Shown in pieces: positions 18,248 to 54,007 of a stretch of DNA of 64,000 nt (position 1 is the stretch's first letter; each line of letters begins with the position of its first letter). Both the position numbers and the translations under genes were made by a program. Source of the stretch: an uncultured Thermoplasmata archaeon (GTDB lineage Archaea > Thermoplasmatota > Thermoplasmata > SG8-5); contig CAYHBA010000001.1 of NCBI GenBank assembly GCA_964354755.1, positions 224,009 to 288,008 of the forward strand, read 5' to 3'. A model generated the notes under the pieces. It saw only the letters and a list, made by a program, of their open reading frames with translations, made no database searches and had not been told where the DNA came from.

Positions 18248-18251
18248 TTGT

Positions 18252-22068: not shown

Positions 22069-22091
22069 ACAAGAATGCAACCTAGCTGAAA

Positions 22092-23126: not shown

Positions 23127-23194
23127 TTAGACATCCAATTAACTTTTCTAATTGGACAGGAAAATATTTACAGTGTCAAGTCCATCCACGCCAT

Positions 23195-23548: not shown

Positions 23549-23562
23549 AATTTATAAAAAAA

Positions 23563-23935: not shown

Positions 23936-24442
23936 GAAAAGGCAAAAGAGAAGAAAAAAGAAAATAATCCGGAGTTTGTTTTAACTGCCGCGACTATGAA
24001 TGCTATTGCGGATATAGTCAAATCACAAAAACGCACAGAAGATTTGGTTAGAGCTACAATGGCATCACAAAGTACATTGGCAACATTAAATCAAATCGCT
24101 CAAAATTCATTAGCAATACAGAGATTCATGGCCCCAACAATGAGCATCTTGGCCTCCCATTTAAATGAAAAAAAAGCAATGGAAAATTTACATCAACAAA
24201 TGCAATCTATAGCATGCTACGAAAAAACGTTATCTTCCCCCTCAATTGGATTAATAAAACCTGAAATGGCGATAATTGCCACAAATCAGCAAAAGATTGA
24301 TGAACGGTTGGATAGAATTGAAAAATTAGTAAAAAGAGTAATTCAATTACTTGGCGAAACCGAACTTTCTGAGGAACAAAAGAAACAACTCGAAAAATTA
24401 ATGAAAGAAATCAATGAAGAAACCGATAAAGCATACAGTTGA
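23927..24442 (+). CDS. Coiled-coil hypothetical protein
   Basis: 171 aa, K/E-rich with heptad character. Confidence 0.45.
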   Translation: MVEEKAKEKKKENNPEFVLTAATMNAIADIVKSQKRTEDLVRATMASQSTLATLNQIAQNSLAIQRFMAPTMSILASHLNEKKAMENLHQQMQSIACYEKTLSSPSIGLIKPEMAIIATNQQKIDERLDRIEKLVKRVIQLLGETELSEEQKKQLEKLMKEINEETDKAYS

Positions 24443-24942
24443 TTGGTAATTGAGGTGATGTTATTACTGGCAGACCAAGAAGACCAAGCCGAAAGGAAAT
24501 TGAAAAACAATCGGAAAAAGCCCGTAGAAGAGTTAAAACCGAACCAATAGAATAATGGAAATAAATAGCCATTATACTCTTAATCAGGCAACGGTTTCCT
24601 TTGTTGATAGTTGCATACGACTTTAGTAAGCAATGCAGGGAAAAGAAAGGCAAAATAAAAGCCGCCGCCCCTACCCTTTCAGCGTCATCCAGCGCAGTAT
24701 CAATAACGCCATTATTATCGCGTTCAGAAAAATTCCTGTGTTATAGCCAATACAAAAATTATAGACCATTCCGATCAAACAAATGAGAAGCCCGCTGCTC
24801 AGGATGGCTTTTATCACTCTTCCGTTCATCAATGCTCAATGCTATTGCTGATAGTTAAGGATTGGTAAAGAAAAGACTTGCCCGGAAGGGATAATTCGGA
24901 CCTAGGATCCAGAATGAAGGGGCGACTACGAAGTTTAGTGCA

Positions 24943-25293
24943 ATGACATTATGTAATAAACTGTTAAAGCATGTTAAATGTATGTTAATCATCTTTAAAT
25001 CGTATCATAACTATTTACAGTTAATGGACGAATCATTAGAAATAATCAACTGGTTGAAAAGTGGAAAATATAGAGTTCCAATGCTAAACGAATTACTATC
25101 TCCTAAATCGCCATCTGAACTTGCTGGCATTCTAAATATAAATCGTGCCTCTGTTAGTAGGATAATAAAGGATCTAACTAGTAAAAAATTGATAGATTGC
25201 ACTGAATCTGGTGCCAAAACAAAGTTATGTATTATTAATGAAAAAGGCAAACACATAATAAAACTCTTTTATGATATCGTGGGTGGTGGATGA
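24943..25293 (+). CDS. Winged-HTH transcriptional regulator, possible restriction-modification controller
   Basis: SPSELAGILNINRASVSRIIKDLTSKKLID is HTH-like. It lies immediately upstream of, and overlaps, the putative endonuclease gene. Confidence 0.45.
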   Translation: MTLCNKLLKHVKCMLIIFKSYHNYLQLMDESLEIINWLKSGKYRVPMLNELLSPKSPSELAGILNINRASVSRIIKDLTSKKLIDCTESGAKTKLCIINEKGKHIIKLFYDIVGGG

Positions 25294-26050
25294 TATAAAT
25301 ATTTCATTTCTTAAAAAGGCAATGGTGAATAGACGGGTACCAAAACCCGCTTCAGGCACGTTGTCTGGACACGCTGCTGGAGAACCCTTTGATAAACTTG
25401 TTTATCAATTAATTAAAGAAAAATATCCTAATAAAACTTTTAGGCAATATGAATACTTAAATAAATTATACCTTGATCATCCCAAGGTAACAACTTACAA
25501 AGATAGGTATAGTTTAATTTCATCTCCTGCATTGAGACTTTTATTAAATCGAGGCGTTGGTGTCACTAAAAAATGGACCTCTACTAATCAACTGAAAGAA
25601 AAGCAAGATGATACAGCTGATACATTATTGATTTCTGGAAATTTCCATCATATTATTGATGTAAAAACACGAAATATAGACAAAAAGGCACTTGCACCAA
25701 ATATTATTTCTGCTAAAAAGTTAGCAGAGATGTCTTTAATAATGATTAAAGAAACGGATTTTGATAGTTTTAAAATAACATACGTAGGTGTCGATTGGGC
25801 CCTTGAGGGGGCTTATTTAGTTTGTAGTAAAACAACAATGAAAGATATATTTCAGGCAACTCCCTCTTCCTTGTATATAAATTGGTCTGCAGCCAATCAA
25901 ATCCAGTTCCATGTTGAAAAACTTGACCAAAGTTATAAAAAAGGAATTAAGACTTGGTGTAAAGAATATCTCGCTCATTATGTCGAATCTGCAAATCATC
26001 GAATGAAACACTTTCGTAAGAAATTTATTAAACCATTCGATATCGATTAG
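25271..26050 (+). CDS. Putative type II restriction endonuclease (PD-(D/E)xK candidate)
   Basis: ADTLLISGNFHHIIDVKTR has PD...(D/E)xK spacing. The gene is convergent with and abuts the methyltransferase gene. Confidence 0.45.
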   Translation: MISWVVDDINISFLKKAMVNRRVPKPASGTLSGHAAGEPFDKLVYQLIKEKYPNKTFRQYEYLNKLYLDHPKVTTYKDRYSLISSPALRLLLNRGVGVTKKWTSTNQLKEKQDDTADTLLISGNFHHIIDVKTRNIDKKALAPNIISAKKLAEMSLIMIKETDFDSFKITYVGVDWALEGAYLVCSKTTMKDIFQATPSSLYINWSAANQIQFHVEKLDQSYKKGIKTWCKEYLAHYVESANHRMKHFRKKFIKPFDID

Positions 26051-27835
26051 TTAATAAATCATGGAATCTAAAATTTTATCGATATCTTCCTTTCCTTTAC
26101 TTGATTGTGTTTTAATTATGTGGTCTACTATCTTCACGATTTTATTATGTATGGCAACTTCATTATCATTTGACCAGTCGATTAATCTTATGGGTATTTT
26201 TGAAAGTGGTTTTTCAGAAAATTCAAGTACGCCACCTCTTGCTAAGCCTTGATATTTTAACCAAGTTAATATGGTGTTTGAATTTAGTTGGGCTAGAATG
26301 AATCGAATATCCTCCTTTACCCATTGTTTTAAAACGATACCAGTTACATCTTGTGTCGGATAAAATTGCCCCTGGATATATGAAAAACGAGCATAATTTC
26401 TCTTATCAATTCGTTCTTTACATGGACAGAATATTTTAGAATCGTTTGTATGAAACAATTCCCAATTTCTTAAGAACACCCATTGCCACCAGGGAATATT
26501 ACGATTATAGGAATATCTGGCATTTAATTTTTCTTTGTGTTTTAATAGTTGATTATATACATGTGGCATCTTCTCTTTTAATTCCCTCTCTGAATGAAGA
26601 TTGTTAAGGAAGATATAGGGGGTATATCCAGTAGCCCAATATTGTTTAAGATCATACGCTTTTATTACGTTGATAATGTATGATTTTTCTGTCTTATTAA
26701 GTGTGTTCAAATCTGAGAGTTGGAATGCTCGGTCCAATCCGCTTACAAGACCATTTCCTATTTCTGCAATATCTCCGAGTCTAATATTTCTCTCAAGATT
26801 GAAATCCTCATTTATCTTTAAGGTTGGATTAGAGAGTGTATAGTATTTCGTTCCAGTAAAATTAATTTCGGAACATATATTTTTAGGGATATCCAATTCC
26901 TCTAAATCGTCTTTCGTGAAAAGTTTAGCTAAGCTATAATAATCTGTTTTTCCATTTAATGTACATTTTACTTTAGGAGAATATATGTGTTTTGTTTGTT
27001 TCAAAACAGAAATTATTGCTTCATATTGTGGTGGAATAATGTTCCAGGGCTGTCCGTTATGAAATTGATGGTGAAGGTATGCTTCATAAATATCTTCGTT
27101 CAGATAAGGATTTCTACTTGATAATTTATTGAGTATTACTGAAATTTCCTCTAGATGGGTAGCTGTTAATCGTTTCTTACTATTTACATTTACAACGAGG
27201 ATGGGCATATTTTGTTTTTTGATACTTTTAATGAATTTAAAGATAATGATCGAGGAGGACACATTATCAAATATCCTCATTTCATTAAAATTAATTATGT
27301 GTGTGATAGTTCCATTTTCTGTGAGAAAACGTCGTAATTTGCTGGCATGAAGGGTTTTTAACCAAAATCCCGGAGTAATAAAAATTAATTCTCCGTTTTC
27401 TTTTAATGCGTCTACAGATGAATAAATAAAGGGATATAGTAAATCTGCCAGGCTGTTCAATCGTTCTTTCCAGATTTCATTTTCTGTTAAATATTGTTGA
27501 AAATCTTTAGGCATGTTTTTCCATCTTACATATGGAGGATTCCCAATTACTAAATCGTAATGATTTTGTAATTCGAGCTTTAAGAAATCTGTATATTTCA
27601 TTTCTATCTTGGATTTATTGTCTAATGTATTATCAATTTCAAATGCATCGATATTATGGTAACCTAATTGTGATAAAATTTCAAGAAAGACTCCTTCGCC
27701 TGCTGATGGCTCACAAATTAGTTGTTTTTCCTTTATTGATGAAAGAGACACCATGAACTTGACAACAATTTCTGGGGTGAATATTTGTCCATACTGTTTT
27801 TCTTTTTCAACCATGATTACCACATCAATTAACAT
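26051..27835 (-). CDS. Type II N6-adenine DNA methyltransferase (gamma class, TaqI-like) with C-terminal target-recognition domain
   Basis: Motif X IFTPEIVVKFMV, motif I CEPSAGEGVFL and motif IV VIGNPPYV, in that order. Confidence 0.8.
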   Translation of the reverse strand: MLIDVVIMVEKEKQYGQIFTPEIVVKFMVSLSSIKEKQLICEPSAGEGVFLEILSQLGYHNIDAFEIDNTLDNKSKIEMKYTDFLKLELQNHYDLVIGNPPYVRWKNMPKDFQQYLTENEIWKERLNSLADLLYPFIYSSVDALKENGELIFITPGFWLKTLHASKLRRFLTENGTITHIINFNEMRIFDNVSSSIIIFKFIKSIKKQNMPILVVNVNSKKRLTATHLEEISVILNKLSSRNPYLNEDIYEAYLHHQFHNGQPWNIIPPQYEAIISVLKQTKHIYSPKVKCTLNGKTDYYSLAKLFTKDDLEELDIPKNICSEINFTGTKYYTLSNPTLKINEDFNLERNIRLGDIAEIGNGLVSGLDRAFQLSDLNTLNKTEKSYIINVIKAYDLKQYWATGYTPYIFLNNLHSERELKEKMPHVYNQLLKHKEKLNARYSYNRNIPWWQWVFLRNWELFHTNDSKIFCPCKERIDKRNYARFSYIQGQFYPTQDVTGIVLKQWVKEDIRFILAQLNSNTILTWLKYQGLARGGVLEFSEKPLSKIPIRLIDWSNDNEVAIHNKIVKIVDHIIKTQSSKGKEDIDKILDSMIY

Positions 27836-38204: not shown

Positions 38205-38397
38205 ATACTATAACGCCCACCAATGGGAATACGGCTTTGACATCGCGGCATACGAAATTATGTCCGATTCGGAAAAGATAACGACCAGCCGACGAAACAT
38301 GGGCGTCCAGAACTTCACCGAGGAACAATGCGACAAGATGGTTCAAGAACGAAATGCCTGGATGAAAAACCTCAGGGAGAAATCATGGGACTCGTAA
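38074..38397 (+). CDS. Overlapping ORF, possible frameshift extension of the tail chaperone
   Basis: Overlaps 37731..38204 by ~130 nt in a different frame. Confidence 0.25.
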   Translation: MPRKNLLRSRRRARRLPRDFDRKNLIRITKLAKLTGQMPHVLAEYYNAHQWEYGFDIAAYEIMSDSEKITTSRRNMGVQNFTEEQCDKMVQERNAWMKNLREKSWDS

Positions 38398-40850
38398 GAC
38401 AGATGGAAGACCTGCAAATCGTGTTCACCAGCCGGGATGAACTGACAGAGAACACTCTGACAGCCGAAGACATCTCGGAAGTCAGGATAAACGAACAGGA
38501 TCTGGTCGGCGGCAGGGCGAAGATAAGAATCAGGAACAAAGCCGGCAGCAATAAATCGAAATTCTACGAGGGCTACAAGGTCGATGTAAAAATCCAATGG
38601 GTCGGCGGCTCTTTAACAAGTTTCTGGCTCGGGAGAATCACCAAGAAACTGCCTGCGAATGATTTGTATCAACGGCAATGCATCACACTCGACGCAGTCG
38701 ATGAAGGCACATGGACGCTAAGCGGAATTAATACAACAACTTATCACACGCATGCAAGCGTCGATGTCGGAGTCATTGTAAAGGCACTTTTGGACACATA
38801 CACAACTTTCGACACAGCCAACATCAACCAGACCACAGGAACGACAATCAGCATTTCCATCCAGACCGGAAGAAACATCATGGACATAATCCGGGAACTC
38901 ATCAGCGGGACAAACAATTCATTTTACATTGATGAGACCGGGCATGCCTACCTTATTGAACGTGGAGCCAGCTCTTCCTATACTTTGGGAGAACTCAGTG
39001 GAAGAACCTTCGATGTGGACCGCGACATCTACAGCATCAAGAATGACATTTTGGTCAAAGGCTCATACATCGCCGACGCCACAAGCACCAGCCAGGAAGG
39101 CCCTCCGGACGGGTACTGGAACATAGACAACAGCACCTACAGACGGAAAATAAAATTCACGCCGACCGGCACGATGATACAGGCAGCAATCATGGCATAC
39201 AATTCCGCAGCCAGCGACCATAACCTCATGATACGCATCCAGCCTGATAACGGCGCAGGAACCGGGCCAGTGGATATCGCGAACTATTCCGCAGACATAG
39301 CGACCGTATTCGTACCGAACTCGGTAATAAACACAGAGGAAGCCGAGGCAGTCGGCGGGGATATCAACGCAAACCTGATCGACGGCGTTGTCGATTACTG
39401 GATTATCGTCGAAAGCGACAGCGCGACCGGGAACTTATTGACGGTCGGATATAAAACCGTCTCCGCTGTCAACACCCTGATTTACGAAGTCTATACAAGG
39501 GAAGAACTGATAAACACGCCCGGAACCGGGACGGACGCGGAGAGTATCGCTAAGCATGGAACTCGGGCTTACACACATATTGACAGAACGCTCTCATCAC
39601 AGGACGAAGTCGATGAGAAGGCCGCAGCTCTGCTCATCGAATACAAAGACCTTGCCAACACAGTGAAAGGCGAATTGCTCACAGACATATTCACCGGCGC
39701 CCATGCGAGAGTCGGCCAGGGCGTCACTGTCAATTTGCCGGATGAAGAGGTCGATGGCAACGTTCTTGGCATCATCGGGATAGTCTGGTCCATCCGGACC
39801 GAGAACGGAACATATCTGGACATCCCGAACTTGATACTCTCGGACACACCGCCTCCGCTGGATGATGCGGATTGGGCGGCACAGATCGGAAGACAGATGG
39901 ATTCCATCAGCAATTCCGTCTCGGTCATTCAGGCAACATCCAGAAGTATTCCGATGCACGCAATCGGCGGGACCAGGCACAGCCCCAGCACATTGGCAGC
40001 TCTAAATGCCCTGATATCCGACAATGATTTAGTCGGCGACGATGACGCCAGGCTCAGCGACGCCAGAACACCTCTGGCTCATGACCACGAAGGAGTCGAT
40101 ATTAAAAGCACAGGGGAAACTGGCACAGCTAAATTCTTAAGGGTAGACGGAGACGATACTTGCTCATGGCAGCCAATCCCGGCAGCCGACCCTCCGGAAG
40201 GAACGGCTGTGAAGTCCACAGGGGAAACCGGGACCTCGAAATTCTTAAGGATTGATGGCGACGATACCTGCTCGTGGCAGGAACCATCTTCACTGGACAC
40301 TACAGCCATCCATAAGGCCACAGACGGTGAAATAGCCGCTATGGATGATAAGACCCCGCCAGTGGATGCTGATATGTTAGTGATAGAAGACAGTGAGGCC
40401 AGTGATGCCAAGAAGAAGCTGACCCTGGCCAATCTAAAAGCATATATCGGTGGCGGGGCCAGTGGTGAAGAAGTGGTCATTACCTGCTATAATGACACTG
40501 GTGACCAGATAATTAAAGGGTCCATCTGCTATGTGTCTGATGATAACGGTGGCACACCCATGATAGCCCTGGCCAAGGCTGATGCCGTGGCCACCACCAG
40601 GGGCATGCTGGTTATGCCTAAGGATGACATAGACGACGAAGGCACCGGTGAATGCGTGGTGATAGGCCCGGTGGATGAATTTAGTGAACTAACTACAGGC
40701 ATGCCAGTCTATATAAGCGAGGCATCAGCCGGGGTCATCACACAGACCATACCCAGCACTGCAGGCCACTATGTCAGGATAGCGGGCTATGCTCTCAGTG
40801 CAACAGTGGTGTACTTCCTGCCTGATGGCACCTACATCAAAAGAAGGTGA
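38385..40850 (+). CDS. Large tail/baseplate-fibre protein with two C-terminal 24-aa tandem repeats
   Basis: 820 aa and beta-rich. Repeats STGETGTAKFLRVDGDDTCSWQPIP and STGETGTSKFLRIDGDDTCSWQEPS. The protein is not alpha-helical, so it is not a classical tape measure. Confidence 0.45.
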   Translation: MGLVRQMEDLQIVFTSRDELTENTLTAEDISEVRINEQDLVGGRAKIRIRNKAGSNKSKFYEGYKVDVKIQWVGGSLTSFWLGRITKKLPANDLYQRQCITLDAVDEGTWTLSGINTTTYHTHASVDVGVIVKALLDTYTTFDTANINQTTGTTISISIQTGRNIMDIIRELISGTNNSFYIDETGHAYLIERGASSSYTLGELSGRTFDVDRDIYSIKNDILVKGSYIADATSTSQEGPPDGYWNIDNSTYRRKIKFTPTGTMIQAAIMAYNSAASDHNLMIRIQPDNGAGTGPVDIANYSADIATVFVPNSVINTEEAEAVGGDINANLIDGVVDYWIIVESDSATGNLLTVGYKTVSAVNTLIYEVYTREELINTPGTGTDAESIAKHGTRAYTHIDRTLSSQDEVDEKAAALLIEYKDLANTVKGELLTDIFTGAHARVGQGVTVNLPDEEVDGNVLGIIGIVWSIRTENGTYLDIPNLILSDTPPPLDDADWAAQIGRQMDSISNSVSVIQATSRSIPMHAIGGTRHSPSTLAALNALISDNDLVGDDDARLSDARTPLAHDHEGVDIKSTGETGTAKFLRVDGDDTCSWQPIPAADPPEGTAVKSTGETGTSKFLRIDGDDTCSWQEPSSLDTTAIHKATDGEIAAMDDKTPPVDADMLVIEDSEASDAKKKLTLANLKAYIGGGASGEEVVITCYNDTGDQIIKGSICYVSDDNGGTPMIALAKADAVATTRGMLVMPKDDIDDEGTGECVVIGPVDEFSELTTGMPVYISEASAGVITQTIPSTAGHYVRIAGYALSATVVYFLPDGTYIKRR

Positions 40851-43101: not shown

Positions 43102-44748
43102 TTATTTCGACTCTTTTCCCATGAACGGATACTTGTAATCCGTAGGTGGCAGCAGGTTCTCCTTGATTGTTCTTGGGCTGACCCAGCTCAGGAGATTGAG
43201 GTATGAGCCTGACTTGTCGTTTGTTCCGGAGCACCTCGCGCCTCCGAACGGCTGCTGGCCCACGACTGCGCCCGTGCATTTGTCGTTTATGTAGAAGTTG
43301 CCAGCCGCGTTCCGCAGTATCTCTGAAGCTTTTACAATGGCATTTCTGTCCTTCGCGAATATCGCTCCTGTAAGAGCATAAGGCGATGTCTGGTCGCAGA
43401 GCCGGAGCGTCTCTTCGTACATCTTGTCCTTGTAGACATAAATCGTCAGTACGGGACCAAATATCTCCTCCTCCATGGTCTTGAAGTGCGGGTCCAGAGC
43501 CTGTATGAGGGTCGGCTCGATGAAGTATCCCTTGGATGAATCGGCCTTTCCGCCAAATATTATCTTTGCGTCCTTGGACTGACGCGCTATTTCAATGTAC
43601 CCAGAAATAGTCTCGAATGCCGATTTGTCTATGACCGCATTCACAAAATTACCAAAGTCCTGGACATCGCCGGTTTTAATCTCCTTAAGCATCTGGATGC
43701 ATTTCGCTTTAACGGGCTCCCAGAGGGATTCAGGGATGTAAGCCCTGGATGCGGCAGAGCATTTCTGGCCCTGGTACTCGAATGCGCCCCGGACCAGTGC
43801 CGTGGCGACTGAATCAGCCTCGGCCGAAGGGTGTACGAAGATGAAATCCTTGCCGCCGGTCTCGCCCACCAGCTTCGGATAGGATGAATACACACTTAGA
43901 TTCTCTCCGAGCGTTCTCCAGAGCTTGCTGAAGACTGCTGTCGAGCCAGTGAAATGAATACCAGCTAACCTTCGATCGTTCAGTGCGATGTTTCCAACAA
44001 CCTCGCCGGAGCCGGGGACGAAGTTTATCACGCCGTCCGGAAAACCCGCTTCCTTGAATATCTCCATTAGGAAATAGTTTGAGAGGAGCGATGTCGTCGC
44101 TGGCTTCCAGAGCACGACATTGCCCATTATCGCCGGAGCGGTCGGAAGATTTGCTCCAATGGCGGTGAAATTGAACGGAGTAACCGCGAAAACGAAACCC
44201 TCCAGTGGTCGGTATTCAACTCGGTTAAGCGTTCCGAGCGAGGCTTCCGGCTGGTCTGCGTAAATCTTCTGGAGATAATAGGCATTGAATCTAAGAAAAT
44301 CTATTGTCTCGCATGCTGCGTCAATCTCTGCCTGGAAAGCGTTCTTGCTTTGACCAAGCATGGTCGCGGCATTGATGAGGAACCGGTGTTTCTTGGAAAT
44401 CAATTCAGCGGCCTTGAGCGCTATTGTCCCGCGTTCCTCCCAGGGAAGGGCTTCCCAGTCGGATTTTGCCGCGATTGCGCAGTCTATCGCTTCCTTGACC
44501 AGTTCAGGTGTCACTTTGTGATATTCGGCAAGTATGTGTTTATGGTCATGGGGCATGACGACTTTGCCCTTGTCGCCTGTCGGAACCTTTCTCCCGCCGA
44601 TGACTGGCATGATTTCTATCTTGCTGTTCTCTATATCTCTCATTGCCTGGATGATGGCTTTTCGCTCCGGACTTCCGGGGGCGTAGTTGAGAACTGGTTC
44701 GTTCGCTGGCCTGGGTATGTTGATGATTGATTCATTCATAATAAACAC
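43102..44748 (-). CDS. 1-pyrroline-5-carboxylate dehydrogenase (aldehyde dehydrogenase superfamily, RocA/PruA-like)
   Basis: The N-terminal NEPVLNYAPGSPERKAI motif is typical of the P5CDH subgroup. ALDH catalytic Cys/Glu regions are present. GC is visibly lower than in host genes. Confidence 0.75.
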   Translation of the reverse strand: MFIMNESIINIPRPANEPVLNYAPGSPERKAIIQAMRDIENSKIEIMPVIGGRKVPTGDKGKVVMPHDHKHILAEYHKVTPELVKEAIDCAIAAKSDWEALPWEERGTIALKAAELISKKHRFLINAATMLGQSKNAFQAEIDAACETIDFLRFNAYYLQKIYADQPEASLGTLNRVEYRPLEGFVFAVTPFNFTAIGANLPTAPAIMGNVVLWKPATTSLLSNYFLMEIFKEAGFPDGVINFVPGSGEVVGNIALNDRRLAGIHFTGSTAVFSKLWRTLGENLSVYSSYPKLVGETGGKDFIFVHPSAEADSVATALVRGAFEYQGQKCSAASRAYIPESLWEPVKAKCIQMLKEIKTGDVQDFGNFVNAVIDKSAFETISGYIEIARQSKDAKIIFGGKADSSKGYFIEPTLIQALDPHFKTMEEEIFGPVLTIYVYKDKMYEETLRLCDQTSPYALTGAIFAKDRNAIVKASEILRNAAGNFYINDKCTGAVVGQQPFGGARCSGTNDKSGSYLNLLSWVSPRTIKENLLPPTDYKYPFMGKESK

Positions 44749-44989
44749 CGTTATTCTGGGCCAAGTATATCGGCTATATTAATGTGATGTTGAACCAATT
44801 TCAATACGTTGAATGATGTGATTTTTCACGACCTTGGGATGCAAAAGCGTATAATTATAATGTTTCAATTATATATTCGAGCCAGCCATCTATGATTCAA
44901 ACTTCGTCTGATGCAACAACGGACGGCAGAAGGCACATACAACGGAACCGCTGGCCCTCCCCCCACCCGCACCGCGCTGGAACCCCTTT

Positions 44990-45335
44990 TCCTATCATTC
45001 CAGTCTTTCGTTCATGCCTGCTTCCGGTCTGGCCACCTTTTCTCCCGTGAATCCGGTGAGAAAAGTTGTCTCAAACAAACATCGGCACCTGTGCCTCGGG
45101 TGTAAAGGAAGCAGAGGCGAGCATGAACGACCAGCCAGTTTGGCTTGGATATTCCCGCGAATATCGGGAATGGAAAGCCTGGAACGAGTCGGTGAAGGAG
45201 CTGGTTTGAATGGCTATGGAATCGATTAGCTGTGATGGCATGCCAGAGGTCTTTCCGGGGGATTTCCCCCGGAAGCCACCACAGCCTTTCCATAATCCAT
45301 TCAACACGCAAGCCAGCTTCGAGGTGATTCAATGA
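44990..45335. repeat. Repeat R1, copy a (copy b at ~46728-47060): structured leader plus two conserved tiny ORFs
   Basis: The first ~230 bp are near-identical between copies (ccagtctttcgttcatgc...ggaagcagaggcgagcatgaacgacc...gagctggtttgaatggc). The second small ORF and the rest of the unit diverge, as detailed in the R1 finding. Confidence 0.85.
45123..45209 (+). CDS. Candidate 28-aa Trp-rich peptide (MNDQPVWLGYSREYREWKAWNESVKELV)
   Basis: Conserved in copy b (MNDRPIWLSYSREYREWKAWNESVKELV) with two synonymous and three conservative changes. Preceded by two hairpins and GGAAGCAGAGG. Its stop is immediately followed by the ATG of a second small ORF (45210-45335). Confidence 0.35.
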   Translation: MNDQPVWLGYSREYREWKAWNESVKELV

Positions 45336-45604
45336 GGGCATCGTCGCCGCACTGGCTTCGGGTGCTTCAATATCTGAATCACTTCAATCCAGACGACCTG
45401 GATTTCGTGGCACCCTTCGACATAACGCAGAACGGGATCGCCGATGCCCTCGGAATCACCCGGCCGCATGCGAGCCTCGTGTTAAAGAAACTCATCACGG
45501 ATGGTTTCGTGGAGCGAAAGATGCTCCATATCAGAGGAGGCCGCAGACGAAGGCTGGCTTACATTATCAGCCCCTCTGGGATTCAGGTGGTGAGAGCTTG
45601 CTAG
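45332..45604 (+). CDS. Winged-HTH transcriptional regulator
   Basis: 90 aa. ADALGITRPHASLVLKKLITDGFVERK is an HTH plus wing. Its ATG overlaps the stop of the upstream tiny ORF (ATGA). Confidence 0.5.
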   Translation: MRASSPHWLRVLQYLNHFNPDDLDFVAPFDITQNGIADALGITRPHASLVLKKLITDGFVERKMLHIRGGRRRRLAYIISPSGIQVVRAC

Positions 45605-45939
45605 GCCAAGTGACGCTCGGCCAGCTCGCAGATGTTACGCGGGGGAATCGTGACATCTCCCTGCAAGTCGATGATATCCTGATCCGGCGGGTGTCCGGCT
45701 CCATAGAGAAACTTGGCGAACCTGTGATAATTGGCGACAGTCGGACACCCTGGCCGGGGAATCCGGACACCTTCATTCATATTCGAGTGTCCAGGAGAGA
45801 TGTACTATTCCCCCGCTATCTGTACTATCTTCTCCAGCACCTGAACCAGAGCGGCCAGTTCCAGCGCATCGCGCAGGGTTCGGTCCAGCAGTTCATCCGC
45901 GTCCGTGACGTCGAGGCGATCGGGCTGAGGCCGGGGTGA
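45598..45939 (+). pseudogene. Fragment of a type I restriction-modification specificity subunit (HsdS half)
   Basis: VTLGQLADVTRGN...DILIRRVSG...LFPRYLYYLLQHLNQSGQFQRIAQGSVQQFIRVRDVEAIGL matches the HsdS target-recognition-domain pattern. No hsdM or hsdR nearby. A shorter copy of the 3' end occurs at ~47170-47255. Confidence 0.6.
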
Positions 45940-46190
45940 CGGCGCCCGACTGCTCGGGCGGCACCAATAAGCGCTGGCTTTGCTGCCAGAGACGAACGCA
46001 AAGCCAGGCGATTAAAGGTGCCGCCCTCGCACGACGATGGTCGTGCGCGCGTTGTTAACATACTCCTTACATACGATATGCAATTATATAGCTACAAGCC
46101 TCGTCTGTAAGGACGGGGTTATGTTAACTAATACTAACGGATATAAACTATATATACCTGTTATCGGATAATGGGAACACGTGACTTGGC
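45846..46190. repeat. Repeat R2, copy a (copy b at ~47170-47530): HsdS 3' fragment, hairpin element, inverted-repeat module and promoter
   Basis: Long direct repeat. It contains a nested hairpin (45955-46027), a 75-bp element with GTTAACAT/ATGTTAAC termini (46054-46128), a TATA-like box (aaactatatatacc) and a conserved leader (ggataatgggaacacgtgacttg). Each copy precedes a different gene. Confidence 0.85.
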
Positions 46191-46246
46191 GTAGCGGAGG
46201 AGTGCCCGGTTAGGAACGTGAATTTGGGGATGGCCAGTTAGGTGAA

Positions 46247-46612
46247 GTGATGATAATTGAACTCTACCTAGACTCAGATAAAGGCGCTGTGAAAGGTGAA
46301 GGTACTGGAAACCTTCCATGGTCTATGAGAGCGGGTTGGACACCAACAAAGGATTCTTCACTTAATGTTAAGATGGCATTCGTCAATTTTACCGATGAAG
46401 AAAATGAATTGAGGACTCGACTTGACCGAATTGCTACCGAACACAATCTCGAAATAATTCTATATGACACAGCGCGGACTCGGTATGCAATGCGAGCTTT
46501 TTTCAAAGGAGTGAAGATATTGCCAACCGTAATTATTGGTAAACATATACTGACTGGCAAAATTACTGAAGCTCAGATAATCAAAGTAATAAATGAGCAA
46601 TCTAATGTTTGA
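46247..46612 (+). CDS. Thioredoxin/glutaredoxin-fold protein without CxxC, paralog of 23195..23548
   Basis: HNLEIILYD...MRAFFKGVKILPTVIIGKHILTGKITEAQI aligns with the 23195 product. AT-rich and driven by the R2 promoter. Confidence 0.5.
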   Translation: MMIIELYLDSDKGAVKGEGTGNLPWSMRAGWTPTKDSSLNVKMAFVNFTDEENELRTRLDRIATEHNLEIILYDTARTRYAMRAFFKGVKILPTVIIGKHILTGKITEAQIIKVINEQSNV

Positions 46613-47548
46613 AAATAGATACAAAAAGTAGGCTGCAACATCCGCCTTTTGCTATACTTAACAACCATACTTAACATCACCGCTAGCCCGCCCCCTCCTC
46701 CGCCCTGCACTGGCCCTCCTCTACCCCCAGTCTTTCGTTCATGCCCTGCTTCCGTCCAGCCACCCTTTCTCCCGTGAATCCGGTGAGAAAAGTTGTCTCA
46801 AACAAACATCGGCACCTGTGCCTCGGGTGTAAAGGAAGCAGAGGCGAGCATGAACGACCGGCCAATTTGGCTTAGCTATTCCCGCGAGTATCGGGAATGG
46901 AAAGCCTGGAACGAGTCGGTAAAGGAGCTGGTTTGAATGGCAATGGAACCAGTCGACTCCCTTGATTGTGATTGGCCGGGGAGTGTTCCCTGGCCATTCC
47001 CGCCTGAAAAGGCGGTCTCCTCTGGGGGGCGGGCGCGGTATTGCCTAACGTGAGTCTGGCGCGCCCACGCGCCAGTGTTGTACCGAGCGAGCAGGTGAGG
47101 GCGAGTTTTCTTGTTTACTGAATATTTTTCTTTTGGAGCCCGAGCAAGCGCAGCGAGGTCAAAAGAAAAATACTCGCGGCCAGTTCCAGCGCATCGCCCA
47201 GGGGTCGGTCCAGCGATTTATTCGGGTTCGGGATGTCGAGGCGATCGGGCTGATTCTGGCTTGACATCCAGCTACACTCGGGCGGTGCCAATAAACGCTG
47301 GCTTAGCTGCTAGAGACGAACGCAAAGCCAGGCGATTAAAGGCACCGCCCTCGCACGCCAGGCAAGGCTGGTCGCGCGTGCGCATTGTTAACATACTCCT
47401 TACATACGATATGCAATTATATAGCTACAAGCCTCGTCTGTAAGGACGGGGTTATGTTAACTGATATTAACTGATATTAACTGATATAACCTATATATAT
47501 CTGATATCGGATAATGGGAACACGTGACTTGCGAGGGAGTGAATAGCT

Positions 47549-48478
47549 TTGAAGGAGATGGGCCTGACTGGCATCGATATTAGAAACTATGATAAAACGA
47601 TAGATATCGACAATTTTGTCCGGTTTTACAATCATGCTCATTCGGATTATCCATCACATAATACTCTAACTGCTGACATCGCGCAGCAATATATTTTTGG
47701 AAAACCAGGGTATGATTCTCAATCACATTTTCTAGCAATCAAGGATTCAGAGATCATCGGAAGTGTCAAAGGGGAGATATTTGCTGGAAAAAGAGGAATT
47801 ATTGGAATGATAATTAGTCCAGAACACCGTATGCTTGGGATTGAAGATGTCCTTTACAAGCTGGTTATGAATTACTATCGTCAGAAAGGATTGGATGAAG
47901 CCGGAGTCCATGTTGATTCGTCATTTCCAAAAATGATTGATTTCTACAAGTCACATGGATTTACCATTTGGAAAATATCATACCAGATGTCATGTAAATT
48001 AAAGCAATCTATGAAAACTAGTTCTAAAATGGCAGCAGGTTATCATATTGGACCATCCAATCAAAATGAGATTGATAAGGTAAGGAATGTCTTAGCAATT
48101 GGTTTTGAAAATGAGCATGTAGAGGAAATAATTGGTGAATTTGACCGACTTCTCCAAGAAAAGGGTTTTGATATAAGTGGAATAATTGTGGCAAGGAAAA
48201 GCAACGATGTCATTGGACTGATATTTAATTTCATCCATCCAGCGATGCCGGATAGAGGATTTGTTACATGGATTGCTGTGATTCCATCAGAGAGAAACAA
48301 GGGTGTGGGAAAATCCCTATTATCATCGGGATTGTCTTGGATGAAAGAGAAAGGCGCTTTGACTGTGGAATTGAATGTCGATTTAAAGAATCCCAGCGCA
48401 TTAAAATTATATCAAGACTGTGGGTTTGAAGTAGTATCTGAAACTAATATTATGCAAAAGGCCCATCTCCGTTTGTAA
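47549..48478 (+). CDS. GNAT-family N-acetyltransferase (two GNAT-like halves)
   Basis: Acetyl-CoA-binding-like motifs (KRGIIGMIISPEHRMLGIED and RGFVTWIAVIPSERNKGVGKSLL). AT-rich and driven by the R2 copy b promoter. Confidence 0.65.
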   Translation: MKEMGLTGIDIRNYDKTIDIDNFVRFYNHAHSDYPSHNTLTADIAQQYIFGKPGYDSQSHFLAIKDSEIIGSVKGEIFAGKRGIIGMIISPEHRMLGIEDVLYKLVMNYYRQKGLDEAGVHVDSSFPKMIDFYKSHGFTIWKISYQMSCKLKQSMKTSSKMAAGYHIGPSNQNEIDKVRNVLAIGFENEHVEEIIGEFDRLLQEKGFDISGIIVARKSNDVIGLIFNFIHPAMPDRGFVTWIAVIPSERNKGVGKSLLSSGLSWMKEKGALTVELNVDLKNPSALKLYQDCGFEVVSETNIMQKAHLRL

Positions 48479-48524
48479 GTTGAACGACCGAGCTCGGCCA
48501 TGAACATCTGGAAACGACGAGAGG

Positions 48525-48730
48525 CCGCGTGGATGCCTCGCCGGAGGATTGCGTCCTTGCACTGCCGCTCATCGAGCAATCCGCACGGATGCGAGCCACC
48601 GTTTTCCCAACGTTACGGCGAAGCAGCCACGAGTACAACGAAGGGACGGGGAGTGTGAACGAAAGGCTTATTATCTGCCTTTCGCATTCACTTGGGGCAA
48701 GTGGCTACTGGCTAAGGCTGTGTGCCCGTT
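48525..48730. repeat. Repeats R_A/R_B, copy 1 (further copies at ~49500-49670 and ~50620-50800)
   Basis: R_A (gaatgcctcgccggag...caagccacc...ttacggcgaagcagc.acgagtacaacg.agg..gggag) and R_B (acgaaag.cttatta...gcattcacttgg...ctgtgccc) recur around the nucleotidyltransferase and membrane-protein genes. The last copy ends in a long palindrome (ggggcggggagcgggtttaatgca...tgcattaaacccgcacaccgcccc). Confidence 0.8.
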
Positions 48731-49520
48731 TCAAATCAATTAAATATTTCTCTGCTACTTCAAGCCATTTGATTTTATCATCTTTTGAGATCACTTGTTG
48801 TCTACGTAGCTTTAATGAATAGTGCACAATGTGTTTTTCATTGTTTTTGAATGCCATTGCTATTTCAGAGTAGCCATTGACTGACTTGTTATCACTCACA
48901 AGATGCAGTTCAATATCAGCGATGTAAAAGATTACCTTAATAAAATCTTTGAATGTGAAGTCAGGGCAAATTTGGTCTTTTTCTTTAAATGTATCTTTAT
49001 GCTCATAAAATATATCAATATGATATTCCAATTCGTTTCTCAGAGTCGCTGGCTTGATTGAAAATTCATTAAAGTTTAACTGTTTTCCATGTACTAATTT
49101 CGCTTTCTTAAGGAAGTTAATGAATACCGGCAATTCGATATTTTCCATTATACTCCCTTTGGATTCCCCACCGAAAAATTCGTCATAACTCATCATGCCA
49201 ATGTCAATTTTGTGAGCAGAGCGAATTTTATTATTCAGAATTTCGTTCAATTGCGTCTCATTAGTAAAATCATAACTGGACTTCATTACACCGATAAAAT
49301 CGATATCGCTGTTATTTATCATGTCTTTTGTGATAAAAGAACCAATAACATAAAGAGAGATTAAATTATCCCCAGTATGCTTTAATATCGTATTTTTAAT
49401 TTCATTAATGAGTTTTTCATCATTCATAAATACCAAATAGATTTCAAGATTATATAGATGTCTCTTAACAAGGGCATGCAACCGAATGATAATTAAGGGA
49501 GCCACCTCCGCCGTGACCAC
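48705..49520 (-). CDS. Polymerase-beta-superfamily nucleotidyltransferase (ANT/LinB-like or defence-type)
   Basis: GSFITKDMINNSDIDF matches the minimal nucleotidyltransferase GS...DxD signature. AT-rich. The true start is probably the internal MNDEKLINE near 49440. Confidence 0.55.
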   Translation of the reverse strand: MVTAEVAPLIIIRLHALVKRHLYNLEIYLVFMNDEKLINEIKNTILKHTGDNLISLYVIGSFITKDMINNSDIDFIGVMKSSYDFTNETQLNEILNNKIRSAHKIDIGMMSYDEFFGGESKGSIMENIELPVFINFLKKAKLVHGKQLNFNEFSIKPATLRNELEYHIDIFYEHKDTFKEKDQICPDFTFKDFIKVIFYIADIELHLVSDNKSVNGYSEIAMAFKNNEKHIVHYSLKLRRQQVISKDDKIKWLEVAEKYLIDLKRAHSLSQ

Positions 49521-49714
49521 CTTGTATTGACGAGAGGTGGCGTTGATGCCCCAGCTAAGCCAGGCAATGAATTGAGCCCCAACGGATTCTATTCACAACG
49601 AAAGCCTTATTACCGGACGGATGCATTCACTTGGAGATGGACGTTTCAGTCGTAGGTTCTGTGCCCCCCAAATCCTTAATAAAAATTTCATTAATATGGA
49701 TATAGGAGCTACTG

Positions 49715-50614
49715 ATGATTATTAAATTCGATATTAACTATATTTTGAAGGTCGTTTTAAAGAGCTTCATTTGTTCAATTTTGCTAATTGTCGGCATGAT
49801 AGTTGGGGGAATTGTGGCAATAACCTTAGGACTGACTCAACCAACAATGCCAGCATCAATTGATACAAATTTAACAATTATTCTAATGATACCTGCGGGA
49901 ATGATAATCTCTATAGTCCTTGGAGAGCTTTTTAAGAAATTAAATCAAGGTTTCCTAGAGCGATTTGTTTGCATATTTCTTTTCAACTACATTATCTATT
50001 TTTTGCTCCAAGTCTTTGAATCGGTTATCTTTACTACAATGATGAATTTAAATTTCGGGATTGTAATGGATATTTTTCCTTCCCTGTTTATTTCGTTAGC
50101 GATAGCCAAAATGTGGAAACCCATCAAGGAAGACCGTAGCCTTAGAACTGAAGCCAAAAGTTACTTTGCTAAAAGAAAAACCTTGGACTGGACATGGAGA
50201 TTTGTATTGGCTTGGCTCGCATATGTACCTTTATATTACTTTATAGGTGTGGCAATTAGCCCGTGGGTTCTTCCATATTATAGTGATCATAGCTTGGAGT
50301 TAGGCATTATTCTTCCTGATGTATCTGAAATGATTGCCCTGCAGTTCATACGGAGTGCTTTTTTCCTTTTCGCAGCAATGCTAGTGATAATAATGTGGAA
50401 GGGAACCAAACAATCACTTCGGTTGTGGCTCGGTTTCTCAATTTTCGTACAAGTGGCTGTAATTCCATTAATCGTCGGACATTGGCTCCCAATCGGATTG
50501 AGAATACCACATGCTATTGAGTTGACTATCGACTCCTTCGTTCAAGCAATAATTTATGTGGGACTTTTATTTATTAACAATCCTAGTCCTAATAGTGTTG
50601 TATCCAAGAATTGA
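49715..50614 (+). CDS. Polytopic membrane protein (about 8 predicted TM)
   Basis: 299 aa, strongly hydrophobic and AT-rich. Divergent from the nucleotidyltransferase gene. Confidence 0.5.
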   Translation: MIIKFDINYILKVVLKSFICSILLIVGMIVGGIVAITLGLTQPTMPASIDTNLTIILMIPAGMIISIVLGELFKKLNQGFLERFVCIFLFNYIIYFLLQVFESVIFTTMMNLNFGIVMDIFPSLFISLAIAKMWKPIKEDRSLRTEAKSYFAKRKTLDWTWRFVLAWLAYVPLYYFIGVAISPWVLPYYSDHSLELGIILPDVSEMIALQFIRSAFFLFAAMLVIIMWKGTKQSLRLWLGFSIFVQVAVIPLIVGHWLPIGLRIPHAIELTIDSFVQAIIYVGLLFINNPSPNSVVSKN

Positions 50615-50948
50615 AGAGTATACGAGAGAACCGCTTGAATGCCTCGCCGGAGCTTTGTATCCTGGTAGCGACGAGATTCGCCAACAAAGCGTACGGTTGC
50701 AAGCCACCATATTCCTGATGTTACGGCGAAGCAGCTACGAGTACAACGCAGGGGCGGGGAGCGGGTTTAATGCACAATGCGAATTGGGGTTGCATTAAAC
50801 CCGCACACCGCCCCGACCCTTCATTCAACGTGAAGACACCTTGAAGCTAATTGCTTCTACATCTTTTCAGGTAACGCCTCAATATTCCACGAGTATTCCT
50901 CAGGGATGCAGCGCCCATGGGGGCCTGTGGCTTGTCCTTGTTGAGTGA

Positions 50949-52960: not shown

Positions 52961-54007
52961 ATGAGCCCCTCGAAGCCGCTCAGCTGGGGTATAATCCCCA
53001 ATCGCTGCAGCCAAATTATTTATCGAAGCAATCGATACGGAGGGAGGCAGATGCCAAGACAGGAAACGTATCTGTGCCGAATAGATCAATGGGAAGCAAA
53101 ACTGAACCAGAGCAGGAAGTCGCCATACACGGTCGCCAGCTATACCGCGGCGGCCAGGTTGGCGCGCAGGATACTGATGGAGAACGGAATCCAGACAGCC
53201 CCCAAGAAACTGTCGCAGGAGGATATCGAACTCATTTATCGGAACCTGCACAACAGCGCCTACAAGATGGGCGTGAAGGACTTCCTCAGGTTCGTGGAAA
53301 ACCCGTATGTGGAACGCGCGGACACCGGCCCGGCTCCGAAGTGCATGAACAAGGCGGACTGGTTGGACAGGGACACGGACGAAGACCGAATAGTCTGGGA
53401 GACGGCGATGAACTCGCCGCTGTTCGAGAAGGTCATTGTCCACTTCGAACTACACCTGGGAATGAGGCGGGGCGGCTGCAAGCGGCTGCTGATGTCCTAC
53501 TACTTGGGCAGACACATGATAGTCCTGGAAAAAGGACGGGAAGGCGGAAAGTTCCGAACCATCCCAGTACACCCGTTCACCAAGGACATCATGCGGGAAG
53601 TGAAGGACTTCAGGGCGGACACCCTGGAGCCGCACGCTTTCAGGAACGGCCTGAAGGTCCCAGAAAAGGTCATCGCCTGGCCGAACCACCACAAGATAAC
53701 CACCCCCTCGGACAACACCCTGAATATACTGCTGAAGAACGTCAGCAGAAAGGCGGGGATAGAGTTCAGCCACCACACCCTGCGGAGGACCTGCGCCAGG
53801 AACCTCTACTTAGAGATGGTGGAACGGGGCAAGGTGAACCTAGCTGCGATACAGCGGTTCTTAGGCCACGAATCCATGGAAATGACCGTGAAATACTTGG
53901 GCATCAACATGGTCGACATGGAGGAGATGATGTCGATAGGCTCCCAAAGGTTCCAAAAACCGATAAATTCGCCGGACTGCACCGAAACGCCAGTAGCCAG
54001 CCTTTAG
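52961..54007 (+). CDS. Tyrosine recombinase/integrase
   Basis: Box I GMRRGGCKRL (Arg), HHTLRRTCARN (His-x-x-Arg), GHESMEMTVKYL (His...Tyr). The stop lies 1-2 bp before the attR arm. The start may be the internal ATG ~90 nt downstream. Confidence 0.8.
   Translation: MSPSKPLSWGIIPNRCSQIIYRSNRYGGRQMPRQETYLCRIDQWEAKLNQSRKSPYTVASYTAAARLARRILMENGIQTAPKKLSQEDIELIYRNLHNSAYKMGVKDFLRFVENPYVERADTGPAPKCMNKADWLDRDTDEDRIVWETAMNSPLFEKVIVHFELHLGMRRGGCKRLLMSYYLGRHMIVLEKGREGGKFRTIPVHPFTKDIMREVKDFRADTLEPHAFRNGLKVPEKVIAWPNHHKITTPSDNTLNILLKNVSRKAGIEFSHHTLRRTCARNLYLEMVERGKVNLAAIQRFLGHESMEMTVKYLGINMVDMEEMMSIGSQRFQKPINSPDCTETPVASL

Follow-up and report, generated by a model that had tools for sequence, protein, structure and literature searches.

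The accessory region of a provirus in an uncultured Thermoplasmata archaeon (NCBI GenBank assembly GCA_964354755.1, contig CAYHBA010000001.1, positions 224,009 to 288,008 of the forward strand; this whole stretch of 64,000 nucleotides (nt) is called the window, and positions are counted from its first letter) holds a 6-kb stretch in which two independent repeat systems are joined. One is a spacer made of a folded element (R_A), a hairpin (R_B) and a leader, which punctuates small unrelated genes, the cassettes. The other is a small operon, present in the window as two units, a and b, whose 5' coding end and 3' hairpin make up the repeat R1 and the left ~180 nt of the repeat R2. Together, they can be read as a regulatory operon at a cargo hotspot, followed by cassettes that are shuffled by recombination in the spacers, a reading to which we give an even chance. 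An initial annotation, made from the sequence alone, had seen four repeat families as the frame of a cassette array whose layout resembles an integron-like or shufflon-like platform. For the cargo half of the region, where R_A and R_B do bound cassettes, this idea largely holds; for R1 and the left half of R2 it fails.

The repeats themselves are real. Self-blastn of the window recovers, at E 8e-21 or lower, the pairs of R1 (44947-45221 versus 46679-46948, 88% over 277 nt, E 3e-95), R2 (45851-46188 versus 47176-47531, 83% over 357 nt, E 6e-105) and R_A (48517-48653 versus 50622-50761, 76% over 140 nt, E 8e-21). Every family is direct in orientation, and the strongest six hairpins or palindromes between 17 and 56 kb all lie inside the repeat region. 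Three copies of R_A and two of R_B had been announced. Two of the R_A copies are full, and the third is reduced to a 22-nt head (49528-49549, 19/22 matches). The second R_B (49596-49633, 30/38 matches) is collinear with this fragment, and each of the two beats 500/500 shuffles; with a covariance model of R_B, the second copy reaches 50.4 bits (E 2e-9). The palindrome described at the end of the last R_A copy is also present, its 24-nt arms (50751-50774 and 50791-50814) being 92% complementary.

The inter-cassette spacer

One inter-cassette spacer occurs in several versions, among them R_A, R_B and, apparently, the right half of R2; the real punctuation of the cassettes is formed by R_A, R_B and the leader. 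In the window, spacers and cassettes follow each other in this order:

46052-46189, plus strand: right half of R2a, apparent miniature spacer, near-identical in R2b
46190-46650, plus strand: thioredoxin (Trx)-fold cassette, with leader CGTAGCGGAGGAGTGCCC... at 46190-46246, open reading frame (ORF) at 46247-46612 and a truncated trailer
47358-47548, plus strand: right half of R2b (apparent miniature spacer b) and shortened leader before the GNAT gene
47549-48478, plus strand: GNAT acetyltransferase cassette, two GNAT domains, 37% GC (Pfam Acetyltransf_1, 1e-25)
48514-48698, plus strand: full spacer, R_Aa (48514-48655) and promoter-like hairpin R_Ba (48636-48698), ending in CACTTGG
48705-49427, minus strand: nucleotidyltransferase cassette, inverted relative to the array (Pfam Polbeta, 2e-5)
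49528-49637, plus strand: degenerate spacer, R_A head (49528-49549) and R_Bb (49575-49637) with a broken stem
49715-50614, plus strand: membrane protein cassette, ~8 transmembrane segments judged by hydrophobicity, 36% GC
50619-50814, plus strand: terminal spacer with R_Ac (50619-50763; R_A covariance model, 135 bits)

In its full form, the spacer runs from a 142-nt folded R_A through a G-rich tract and an R_B hairpin of variable sequence to the leader. The closing stem of R_A, P0, reads CCTCGCC/GGCGGGG, and CCTCACC/GGTGGGG in L020 (L numbers denote related loci on other contigs). The 7-bp stem P1 occurs in three wholly different complementary versions with 6/7 pairs covarying, and the primary sequence of R_A is strongly conserved. 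The R_B stem is 84.7% paired, three of its pairs are changed on both sides, and 0/500 shuffles equal its covariation score or paired percentage. Stems tolerate G-U pairs, and covariation of the spacer and hairpin elements is based on 6-9 copies throughout. In every spacer, the loop of R_B carries a TATA-like octamer ~25 nt before an invariant CTTGG, a distance that is unchanged even with a loop ~30 nt longer. Such spacing is the geometry of an archaeal promoter with B recognition element (BRE), TATA box and initiator (Inr) and, because the octamer precedes CTTGG in every spacer, one promoter per cassette is predicted. R_Aa scores 156.5 bits (E 6e-36) with the R_A covariance model (labelled R2) and R_Ba 71.4 bits (E 4e-14) with that of R_B (labelled R1), while the 3' arm of R_Ac runs into the palindrome 50751-50814, which replaces the R_B hairpin. 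Spacers of 50-63% GC stand between cassettes of 33-39% GC, in surroundings of ~56%.

This spacer also seems to exist in miniature, in the right half of R2. In R2a, it contains a TATA-like site (46082-46092), an AT palindrome around TATATATA (46135-46170), ACTTGG (46184-46189) and a hairpin, CCTCGTC-TGTAAG-GACGGGG (46099-46118), which is likened to P0 and would be the closing stem of R_A without its interior. R2 had been credited with supplying an identical promoter and leader to two different genes, and it does place the same AT-rich TATA region and ACGTGACTTG before both the Trx-fold and the GNAT gene. The GNAT leader, CG..AGGGAGTG..AATAG, reads in a manual alignment as a deletion derivative of the Trx leader. 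Five upstream modules meet at the same CTTGG and leader 5' of the Trx-fold gene in different loci: the canonical hairpin, another hairpin, an AT-rich hairpin, a clean 46-nt hairpin deletion ending at CTTGG (L023) and the AT-rich palindrome of the window.

Known families do not cover these elements: Rfam 15 has no match in the whole window at gathering thresholds and none at E <= 1 in 44.7-51 kb or L026, and no description of them was found in a limited literature check. Exact patterns of 22-29 nt have zero matches in viral contigs, whether taken from R1 (two), R_A, the leader or the right half of R2 (one each); a second pattern from that half of R2 has zero in genome contigs. R_A was also considered as a coding remnant, which is rejected on the lack of codon periodicity in its mismatches (15/22/22).

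Homologues of the Trx-fold gene (75-85% identity) lie on other metagenome contigs, where small, unrelated genes form arrays in one orientation:

L020: GNAT, orf247, Trx
L022: Trx paralogue, nucleotidyltransferase, methyltransferase, Trx
L025: Trx, NYN
L026: Trx, membrane protein, orf195

The Trx-fold cassette has different neighbours in the window and in each of these four arrays, and its counterparts in L020-L025 are 78-89% identical to it in nucleotides. On contigs of at least five other metagenome assemblies, unrelated single genes are parted by the spacer of the window, mostly as a window-type R_B preceded by the 3' end of R_A; three complete R_A plus R_B spacers are found in L026. The R_B model detects 16 distinct copies in L020, L022, L024, L025, L026 and L027, in addition to two in the window (four further matches in L021 duplicate those of L020 and are not counted), and all its matches lie on the strand of the called array genes. 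Full copies of R_A, at 97-162 bits, number two in the window, three in L026 and one in L020. Consecutive genes parted by spacer-model matches amount to four in L020, four in L022 and three in L026; the window has four cassettes between spacers, one of them inverted, and forms a tandem array in the sense used for integrons and for clusters of attC sites lacking integron-integrases (CALINs). R_B and leader are located 5' of the Trx-fold gene, orf247, orf195 and genes for GNAT, nucleotidyltransferase, methyltransferase and membrane proteins. The expectation that the repeats would be found elsewhere with other cargo was borne out for R1, the R2 hairpin, R_A and R_B, all of which occur in other genomes.

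In these other arrays, the leader and trailer of one cassette are complementary over 9-13 nt, in at least four cassette-specific sequence types. In Trx-type cassettes, GTAGCG lies immediately outside both arms, a repeat that other cassette types lack. No bulge-helix-bulge processing motif could be drawn at the leader/trailer stem. The contigs with the best arrays have ~40% GC which, together with the low GC of the cassettes, suggests acquisition from a lower-GC relative. No viral genes are seen on these contigs; unlike in the original framing as a mechanism of archaeal proviruses, the system is not restricted to proviruses. Precomputed gene and Pfam listings call no recombinase gene on the array contigs. 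The array of L020 is closed by an 841-aa ATPase_2/TPR (STAND-like) protein (3016-5541, minus strand; aa, amino acids), the winged helix of which is 41% identical to the 90-aa regulator of the window operon.

Among the cassette genes of the window, the Trx-fold ORF is silent in Pfam, PHROGs and PDB sequence searches. Its AlphaFold model (pLDDT 72, beta-alpha-beta-alpha-beta-beta-alpha) is consistent with a thioredoxin fold, the top PDB matches being mostly thioredoxins (TM 0.5-0.74); the protein has no cysteine and hence no CxxC motif, and a 30-aa low-confidence insert occupies the position where CxxC is expected. Its trailer loses GGGCACTCC after ...ATCCGC. For the GNAT gene, the Pfam match leaves the annotation as it was. 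The nucleotidyltransferase keeps its name on matches to Polbeta and NTP_transf_2 that fall under the curated Pfam cutoffs (24.9 versus 26.9 and 18.7 versus 21 bits), next to PADLOC PDC-S09 (3e-7) and weak ANT(9)/MntA matches. The membrane protein has about eight hydrophobic segments, as annotated, with no family match in profile searches and no exact sequence record. A 10-nt remnant of a cassette leader, GTGCCCGTTT (48727-48736), lies in the 3' end of the inverted nucleotidyltransferase gene just past R_Ba, so that the predicted promoter of R_Ba would fire antisense into this gene. With its truncated Trx trailer, inverted cassette, degenerate spacer and terminal palindrome, the window array looks like a worn example of its kind.

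The duplicated operon

The operon delimited by R1 and the left ~180 nt of R2 is duplicated; R1 is its 5' coding end, and the R2 part holds its 3' hairpin. Its order is a short ORF with Shine-Dalgarno (SD) sequence and TTG start, a second short ORF, a winged-helix regulator, an HsdS-like protein with a single target-recognition domain (TRD) and an 80-nt terminal hairpin. The features of the two units, one of which contains an element resembling a miniature inverted-repeat transposable element (MITE), are:

44944-45221, plus strand: R1a, head of unit a (88% to R1b; 85% to L002 7133-7401)
45210-45335, plus strand: short ORF 2a, 41 aa, diverged from short ORF 2b
45332-45604, plus strand: winged-helix (MarR-like) regulator, 90 aa (Pfam MarR_2, 31.9 bits)
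45598-45939, plus strand: single-TRD HsdS-like protein, 113 aa (PADLOC Type I specificity models)
45951-46031, plus strand: terminal hairpin of unit a, 25 pairs (minimum free energy -54 kcal/mol, z -4.7)
46679-47053, plus strand: R1b with short ORFs 1b/2b, head of the decayed unit b (88% to L002 7143-7466)
47088-47176, no strand assigned: MITE-like element of ~90 nt (inverted copy at 1794-1880 in host DNA, 88%)
47176-47357, plus strand: left half of R2b, with a remnant of the TRD-like C-terminus and terminal hairpin b (47277-47357)

R1a comprises the upstream region, an SD (GGTGA-N6-TTG) and short ORF 1 (45066-45209, 47 aa, EWKAWN motif). The N-terminal ~19 codons of this ORF are common to the Zn-ribbon ORF of L002/L019, with synonymous changes, and the EWKAWN peptide is kept in the distant L008. 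The reading of R1 as a non-coding structured RNA only is rejected on these synonymous changes, the kept SD-TTG and a first small hairpin that is not conserved. A second hairpin in R1 does covary (GCACC/GGUGU, GACACC/GGUGUC, GGUAUC/GGUACC), and a dual coding and RNA role of R1 may be entertained. At the start of the first ORF in four loci (45066-45125; L002 3214-3275; L019 736-800; L007 ~250-305), SD-N6-TTG is kept and the ~19-aa N-terminus ..TCASGVKEAEA.. is similar; the remainder varies, from the EWKAWN peptide in the window to a CxxC...CxxC zinc ribbon in L002 and L019, and in L007 and L008 the ORF is fused in frame to a TRD-like protein.

The regulator was already annotated as winged helix-turn-helix (wHTH), in agreement with its MarR_2 score (cutoff 27); it has nine homologues of 62-91% identity, including a close relative on a contig of Methanomassiliicoccales archaeon UBA280, on the basis of which the host of the provirus is probably a relative of Methanomassiliicoccales. 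The next gene had been called an HsdS fragment. Its likeness to HsdS holds, on 17 PADLOC Specificity_I models (E 6.5e-5 to 1e-2, residues ~18-108) and on PDB profile matches only to S.BsaXI and EcoKI HsdS (E 0.36 and 0.52), with no match to Pfam Methylase_S. It is no fragment: the 113-aa ORF is complete and conserved, with four homologues (54-86% identity) and family members of 113-132 aa, and its last 30 codons are the first 90 nt of R2a. Homology to a target-recognition domain is present, and one TRD-sized domain in 113 aa takes the place of the two TRDs and the hsdM/hsdR partners expected of HsdS; neither hsdM nor hsdR is found in the window. In the terminal hairpin, 92.6% of cells are paired and four pairs show compensatory changes, with a covariation score above 500/500 shuffles. 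In hairpin b, the outer stem differs from copy a by a double compensatory change, CA/TG to TG/CA.

Units a and b are a tandem pair of which b has decayed through insertion of the MITE-like element; where unit a has its wHTH gene and the 5' portion of its TRD-like gene, unit b has this element, with most of the TRD-like gene lost. The element has an internal inverted repeat (47120-47175, TTTTTCTTTTG / CAAAAGAAAAA), its copy at 1794-1880 lies between two convergent host genes, and the host probably carries it as a small, dispersed MITE-like repeat. Two other interpretations of R2 and its surroundings were discarded. A minus-strand 78-aa ORF over the R2 hairpin has a composition unlike that of proteins, and in copy b a stop codon interrupts it. 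IS200/IS605-type ends with an HUH transposase, an idea that came from the subterminal hairpins, are contradicted by ORF113, which is TRD-like and without an HUH motif.

The unit recurs at 82-91% nucleotide identity in L002/L009/L018, L005, L006 and L017, and five settings can be distinguished: an element with a terminase, present in many samples as well as in the UBA280 metagenome-assembled genome (L002/L009/L018), a chromosomal island adjoining a TIR-domain gene (L006), a position adjacent to an integrase (L005), a position adjacent to a 1097-aa surface protein (L017) and, as distant low-GC relatives, L007/L008 with the three genes in another order. No flanking or structural genes are common to the loci of the unit, and its relatives share nothing with the window provirus at the protein level beyond the unit. 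A tandem pair is present in the window, L002 and L006. In all comparisons, similarity ends at the 3' base of the hairpin (46029-46031), after which six different cargos are found: Trx, GNAT, a Type I restriction-modification (R-M) system, a 114-aa ORF with an integrase, the 1097-aa surface protein and an RNase III-like gene. Compared with L006, L002 has a 2.6-kb insertion immediately after the hairpin, and in L002 an hsdRMS operon lies beside the TRD-like ORF on the opposite strand. As an exact pattern, the hairpin occurs in one metagenome locus (L006) and has zero matches in viral contigs.

Several related contigs show further rearrangements or breaks. In L006, the second unit is rearranged at 7743-7906: the R1 core (64 nt, 98% to the window) is inverted, apparently through the inverted repeat of R1 itself (TCGTTCATGC.../...GCATGAACGA), and is fused to half of the terminal hairpin, followed by the RNase III-like gene. 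The Logan contigs L013-L016, short-read assemblies independent of each other that carry the L002-type element, break at most ~80 nt past the winged-helix gene, in the terminal hairpin, and L001 is 100% identical to window positions 45039-46129, starting and stopping within R1 and R2. Contig breaks at hairpins or repeats are as expected of repeats, and downstream population heterogeneity would give the same pattern.

Known systems and routes of cassette exchange

To our knowledge, integrons are the sole well-understood system that stockpiles and shuffles single genes as cassettes. Like integrons and CALINs, the arrays described here line up small, functionally unrelated genes in tandem, mostly singly and mostly in one orientation, with a repeated element of conserved secondary structure between them; the same cassette occurs with different neighbours, and arrays can lack an adjacent integrase. 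The integron integrase, IntI, is a tyrosine recombinase with a specific additional domain. CALINs are without IntI by definition, so that a missing IntI alone does not exclude this class. An attC site is an imperfect palindrome with an RYYYAAC inverse core and a GTTRRRY core 40-150 nt apart; scanned by script on both strands, 44.7-51 kb, L020, L022, L025 and L026 yielded no complementary R''/R' pair with L''/L' pairing. Unlike integrons and CALINs, the present arrays have neither R''/R' cores nor IntI, their spacer is longer (up to ~250 nt) with a strongly conserved R_A primary sequence, some cassettes have complementary ends that flank the ORF and not the spacer, and each spacer carries a predicted TATA/Inr-like promoter, which would remove dependence on a single cassette promoter (Pc). 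Archaeal integrons were reported only in 2022, and those described to date were defined through IntI and attC sites of the canonical type (Ghaly et al., 2022, PMC9668308), an approach that would miss these arrays. Phase-variable hsdS loci and shufflons, in which inverted repeats flank alternative gene segments that a linked recombinase inverts, share with the present loci a TRD-like ORF beside repeats, next to a complete Type I R-M system in L002 and an integrase in L005; here, however, the repeats are direct and not inverted, and the TRD-like ORF is complete, conserved and of 113-132 aa, not a silent gene half. Judged by its sequence features, the locus is neither integron nor shufflon, despite the resemblance in layout noted initially.

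Accessory hotspots of phages and satellites (P2/P4) and lambdoid morons place low-GC genes with their own promoters between conserved flanks. The variable, low-GC foreign cargo between tail module and integrase follows this pattern and is often of defence type (R-M, GmrSD, HEPN, TIR, nucleotidyltransferase). The differences are a conserved flank that consists of a tandem-repeated small operon common to otherwise unrelated elements, and internal punctuation of the cargo by a repeated spacer family. Correia elements are promoter-bearing intergenic MITEs. Putative mobile promoters have been described as well (Matus-Garcia et al., 2012, PMC3488235). The likeness to both lies in one promoter-like sequence and leader before unrelated genes in several genomes, and R_B with its leader and R2 both present such a putative promoter region 5' of non-homologous genes. 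Mobile promoters and MITEs are dispersed; the spacers stand in arrays between consecutive genes, include a 142-nt folded upstream element and have no conserved terminal inverted repeats or consistent target duplication, the two marks of a MITE or mobile insertion cassette.

Cassette movement is seen only through its products, the same gene with different neighbours. In the reading preferred here, the wHTH/TRD-like operon would be a regulatory module 3' of which accessory or defence genes pile up, and each cassette would be its own transcription unit of spacer promoter, leader, one ORF and trailer. Cassettes may be gained, lost, inverted and re-ordered via recombination inside the conserved spacers, for which the simplest route would be host homologous recombination between spacer copies without a dedicated recombinase. 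Such an event would free a circle of one cassette and one spacer, which could re-enter at any other spacer. This route is favoured because the spacers, 60-250 nt long and 75-90% identical, are adequate substrates for it and the arrays have no linked recombinase; like it, promoter activity and the function of R_A are inferred. Several observations weigh against the proposal. Single-sequence folding of R_A is no better than that of shuffled sequences (z +0.5 to -1.6), and its structure draws on covariation in only six copies. The promoter is deduced from sequence geometry only, and the R2 hairpin was equated with P0 by manual alignment only. The AT-rich right half of R2 is found nowhere outside this genome. 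The GNAT, nucleotidyltransferase and membrane-protein cassettes of the window have no leader/trailer complementarity, and none of them was found in another array. Finally, the array relatives are all short metagenome contigs of 0.6-11 kb, so that the array ends and any linked recombinase may lie beyond them.

The fixed CTTGG junction and the always-sharp hairpin boundary also count against exchange by homologous recombination, since they could instead mean site-specific cutting. A structure-specific, integron-like recombinase would then recognise the folded spacer (R_B hairpin and/or R_A) and cut at or beside CTTGG, where single-gene circles enter and leave, and the wHTH/TRD-like unit, with its promoter ending in ACTTGG, would be the platform (attI plus Pc). 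This accommodates the five upstream modules that join one leader at CTTGG, the independent 46-nt deletion that ends there, a hairpin stem that changes sequence yet keeps pairing like attC sites, R_A conservation as for a protein-binding site, single and mostly same-strand genes of integron-cassette kinds (GNAT, nucleotidyltransferase, methyltransferase, NYN), the one inverted window cassette and the integrase-less attC arrays (CALINs) known in archaea (PMC9668308). Although the main rival, this explanation is unlikely: no spacer has an RYYYAAC...GTTRRRY pair on either strand, the top NCBIfam match of the window integrase is XerA with 38.9 bits versus a cutoff of 220, TIGR02249, the integron-integrase model, does not match that integrase, and the precomputed gene and Pfam listings of the array contigs contain no recombinase. 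Moreover, the constant TATA-to-CTTGG spacing is promoter geometry, which already explains the conservation of hairpin and junction, and the length and identity of the spacers are adequate for homologous recombination. Punctuation at the RNA level only would make the spacers processing, stability or termination modules and internal promoters of ordinary gene clusters, with R_A as a structure in the 3' untranslated region, leader and trailer as a panhandle and gene orders from ordinary rearrangement. The covariation of R_A, R_B and leader/trailer, the tolerated G-U pairs and the conserved promoter geometry all suit an RNA; we consider this quite unlikely in view of a Trx-fold gene beside unrelated genes in five arrays with breakpoints within spacers, low-GC cassettes between higher-GC spacers, arrays in a provirus accessory region and beside defence-type genes, and no Rfam family at E <= 1.

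The 9-13-nt inverted repeats formed by leader and trailer of the same cassette, with GTAGCG just outside in the Trx type, would fit mobile insertion cassettes, that is, inverted-repeat-flanked genes moved by a transposase in trans with duplication of a GTAGCG target, and empty sites of the form CTTGGC-GTAGCG-AAGCTGGAGC would be implied. The inverted repeats are, however, wholly different from cassette to cassette (GGAGTGCCC, GAGTGGCCGGTGG, GGACAAATTCCT, GGCATTGGGCA), so that no single transposase could read them all; they behave as covarying stems, the GTAGCG repeat is missing from the other cassette types and no transposase is seen on any contig, which leaves this explanation very unlikely. 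Least credible is a one-off local duplication of ~1.7 kb followed by deletions, without any cassette system. Units a and b are indeed tandem duplicates with b decayed through the MITE-like insertion, the AT-rich half of R2 was not found beyond this genome and, of the spacers, the middle one is degenerate. Other genomes, however, carry R1, R_A, R_B and the terminal hairpin with different cargo, and the tandem pair itself recurs in L002 and L006. As the full explanation a one-off duplication is refuted; it survives as the origin of the unit a/b pair only. A further and most novel possibility, though a rather unlikely one, is that the R_A/R_B spacers constitute an undescribed, non-integron gene-capture system of archaea. 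Single genes would move as cassettes between folded elements that carry promoters, with structure-specific exchange at CTTGG and the wHTH/TRD-like unit (terminal hairpin, AT-rich promoter, ACTTGG) as docking and expression platform, which would account for cargo always starting at the base of the unit hairpin.

The provirus setting and implications

The array is set in a tailed virus integrated into archaeal chromosomal DNA, and the order of the provirus genes agrees with the annotated location between tail module and integrase. Host-type genes in the window include archaeal LonB, DUF835/TPR proteins and CobA. Genes of the provirus and the slot left of unit a are:

18210-19916: large terminase (TerL)
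28031: portal
31505: HK97-like capsid protein
36762: tail tube
38328-40850: 840-aa ORF without Pfam match, candidate tape-measure protein by its size and its place after the tail tube
43102-44748, minus strand: aldehyde dehydrogenase (Pfam Aldedh, 2e-101), in a variable minus-strand slot left of unit a
52961-54007, plus strand: tyrosine integrase (Pfam Phage_integrase, 4e-11)

The integrase lies ~2 kb from the array with other genes in between and, by its profile matches, is an ordinary tyrosine recombinase and not an integron integrase, as had been supposed of the only integrase nearby. Relatives of this integrase were not found in the viral contigs searched, no tRNA or tmRNA was found as a possible att marker, and deposited genomes of phages and archaeal viruses have zero blastn matches to the whole region. 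In L002 and L006, the slot of the aldehyde dehydrogenase holds a 150/161-aa membrane protein instead. To the left of this slot, the segment 42907-43045 is 75% identical to L002 6255-6395, with a possible 61-66-aa ORF and AACAAA/TTTGTT pairing.

A second AT-rich island (20212-27835, 31-40% GC) between large terminase and portal encodes a GmrSD-type endonuclease (20212-22068) and restriction-modification functions, namely a HincII endonuclease (25271-26050) and an Eco57I-like methyltransferase (26051-27835, minus strand). It is a defence island within the structural module of the provirus, and the R_A/R_B covariance models find zero copies in it. A paralogue of the Trx-fold cassette gene lies there at 23195-23548 (32% to the L020 homologue, 34% to L022 orf111), with a tandem duplication of ~200 nt on its 3' side (23555-23751 / 23755-23964, 76% identical). 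Each copy of the duplication has a hairpin, GGCAGGGA...TCCCTGCC, and a TATA-like GATTTATAGATA, and the part 23557-23627 resembles L002 285-356. Elsewhere in the window, a 783-aa NosD/beta-helix gene (1890-4241, minus strand) contains internal repeats of ~70-75% identity (2640-3840), which are ordinary repeat-protein structure; L020 encodes a related protein with 48% identity over 178 aa.

Even read conservatively, the analysis adds R_A, the promoter-like hairpin R_B and the terminal hairpin of the unit as new conserved structured elements, all three supported by covariation, and a small operon of wHTH and single-TRD genes as a marker of hotspots with variable cargo. Each of the four is now open to searches with models. 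The arrays resemble cassette arrays, with a punctuation that is longer, promoter-like and RNA-like. If the spacers mediate exchange, they would represent a second, independent solution to gene capture, in arrays that attC-based integron finders do not see, and such a gene-capture system would act in methanogen-related archaea, their viruses and defence islands.

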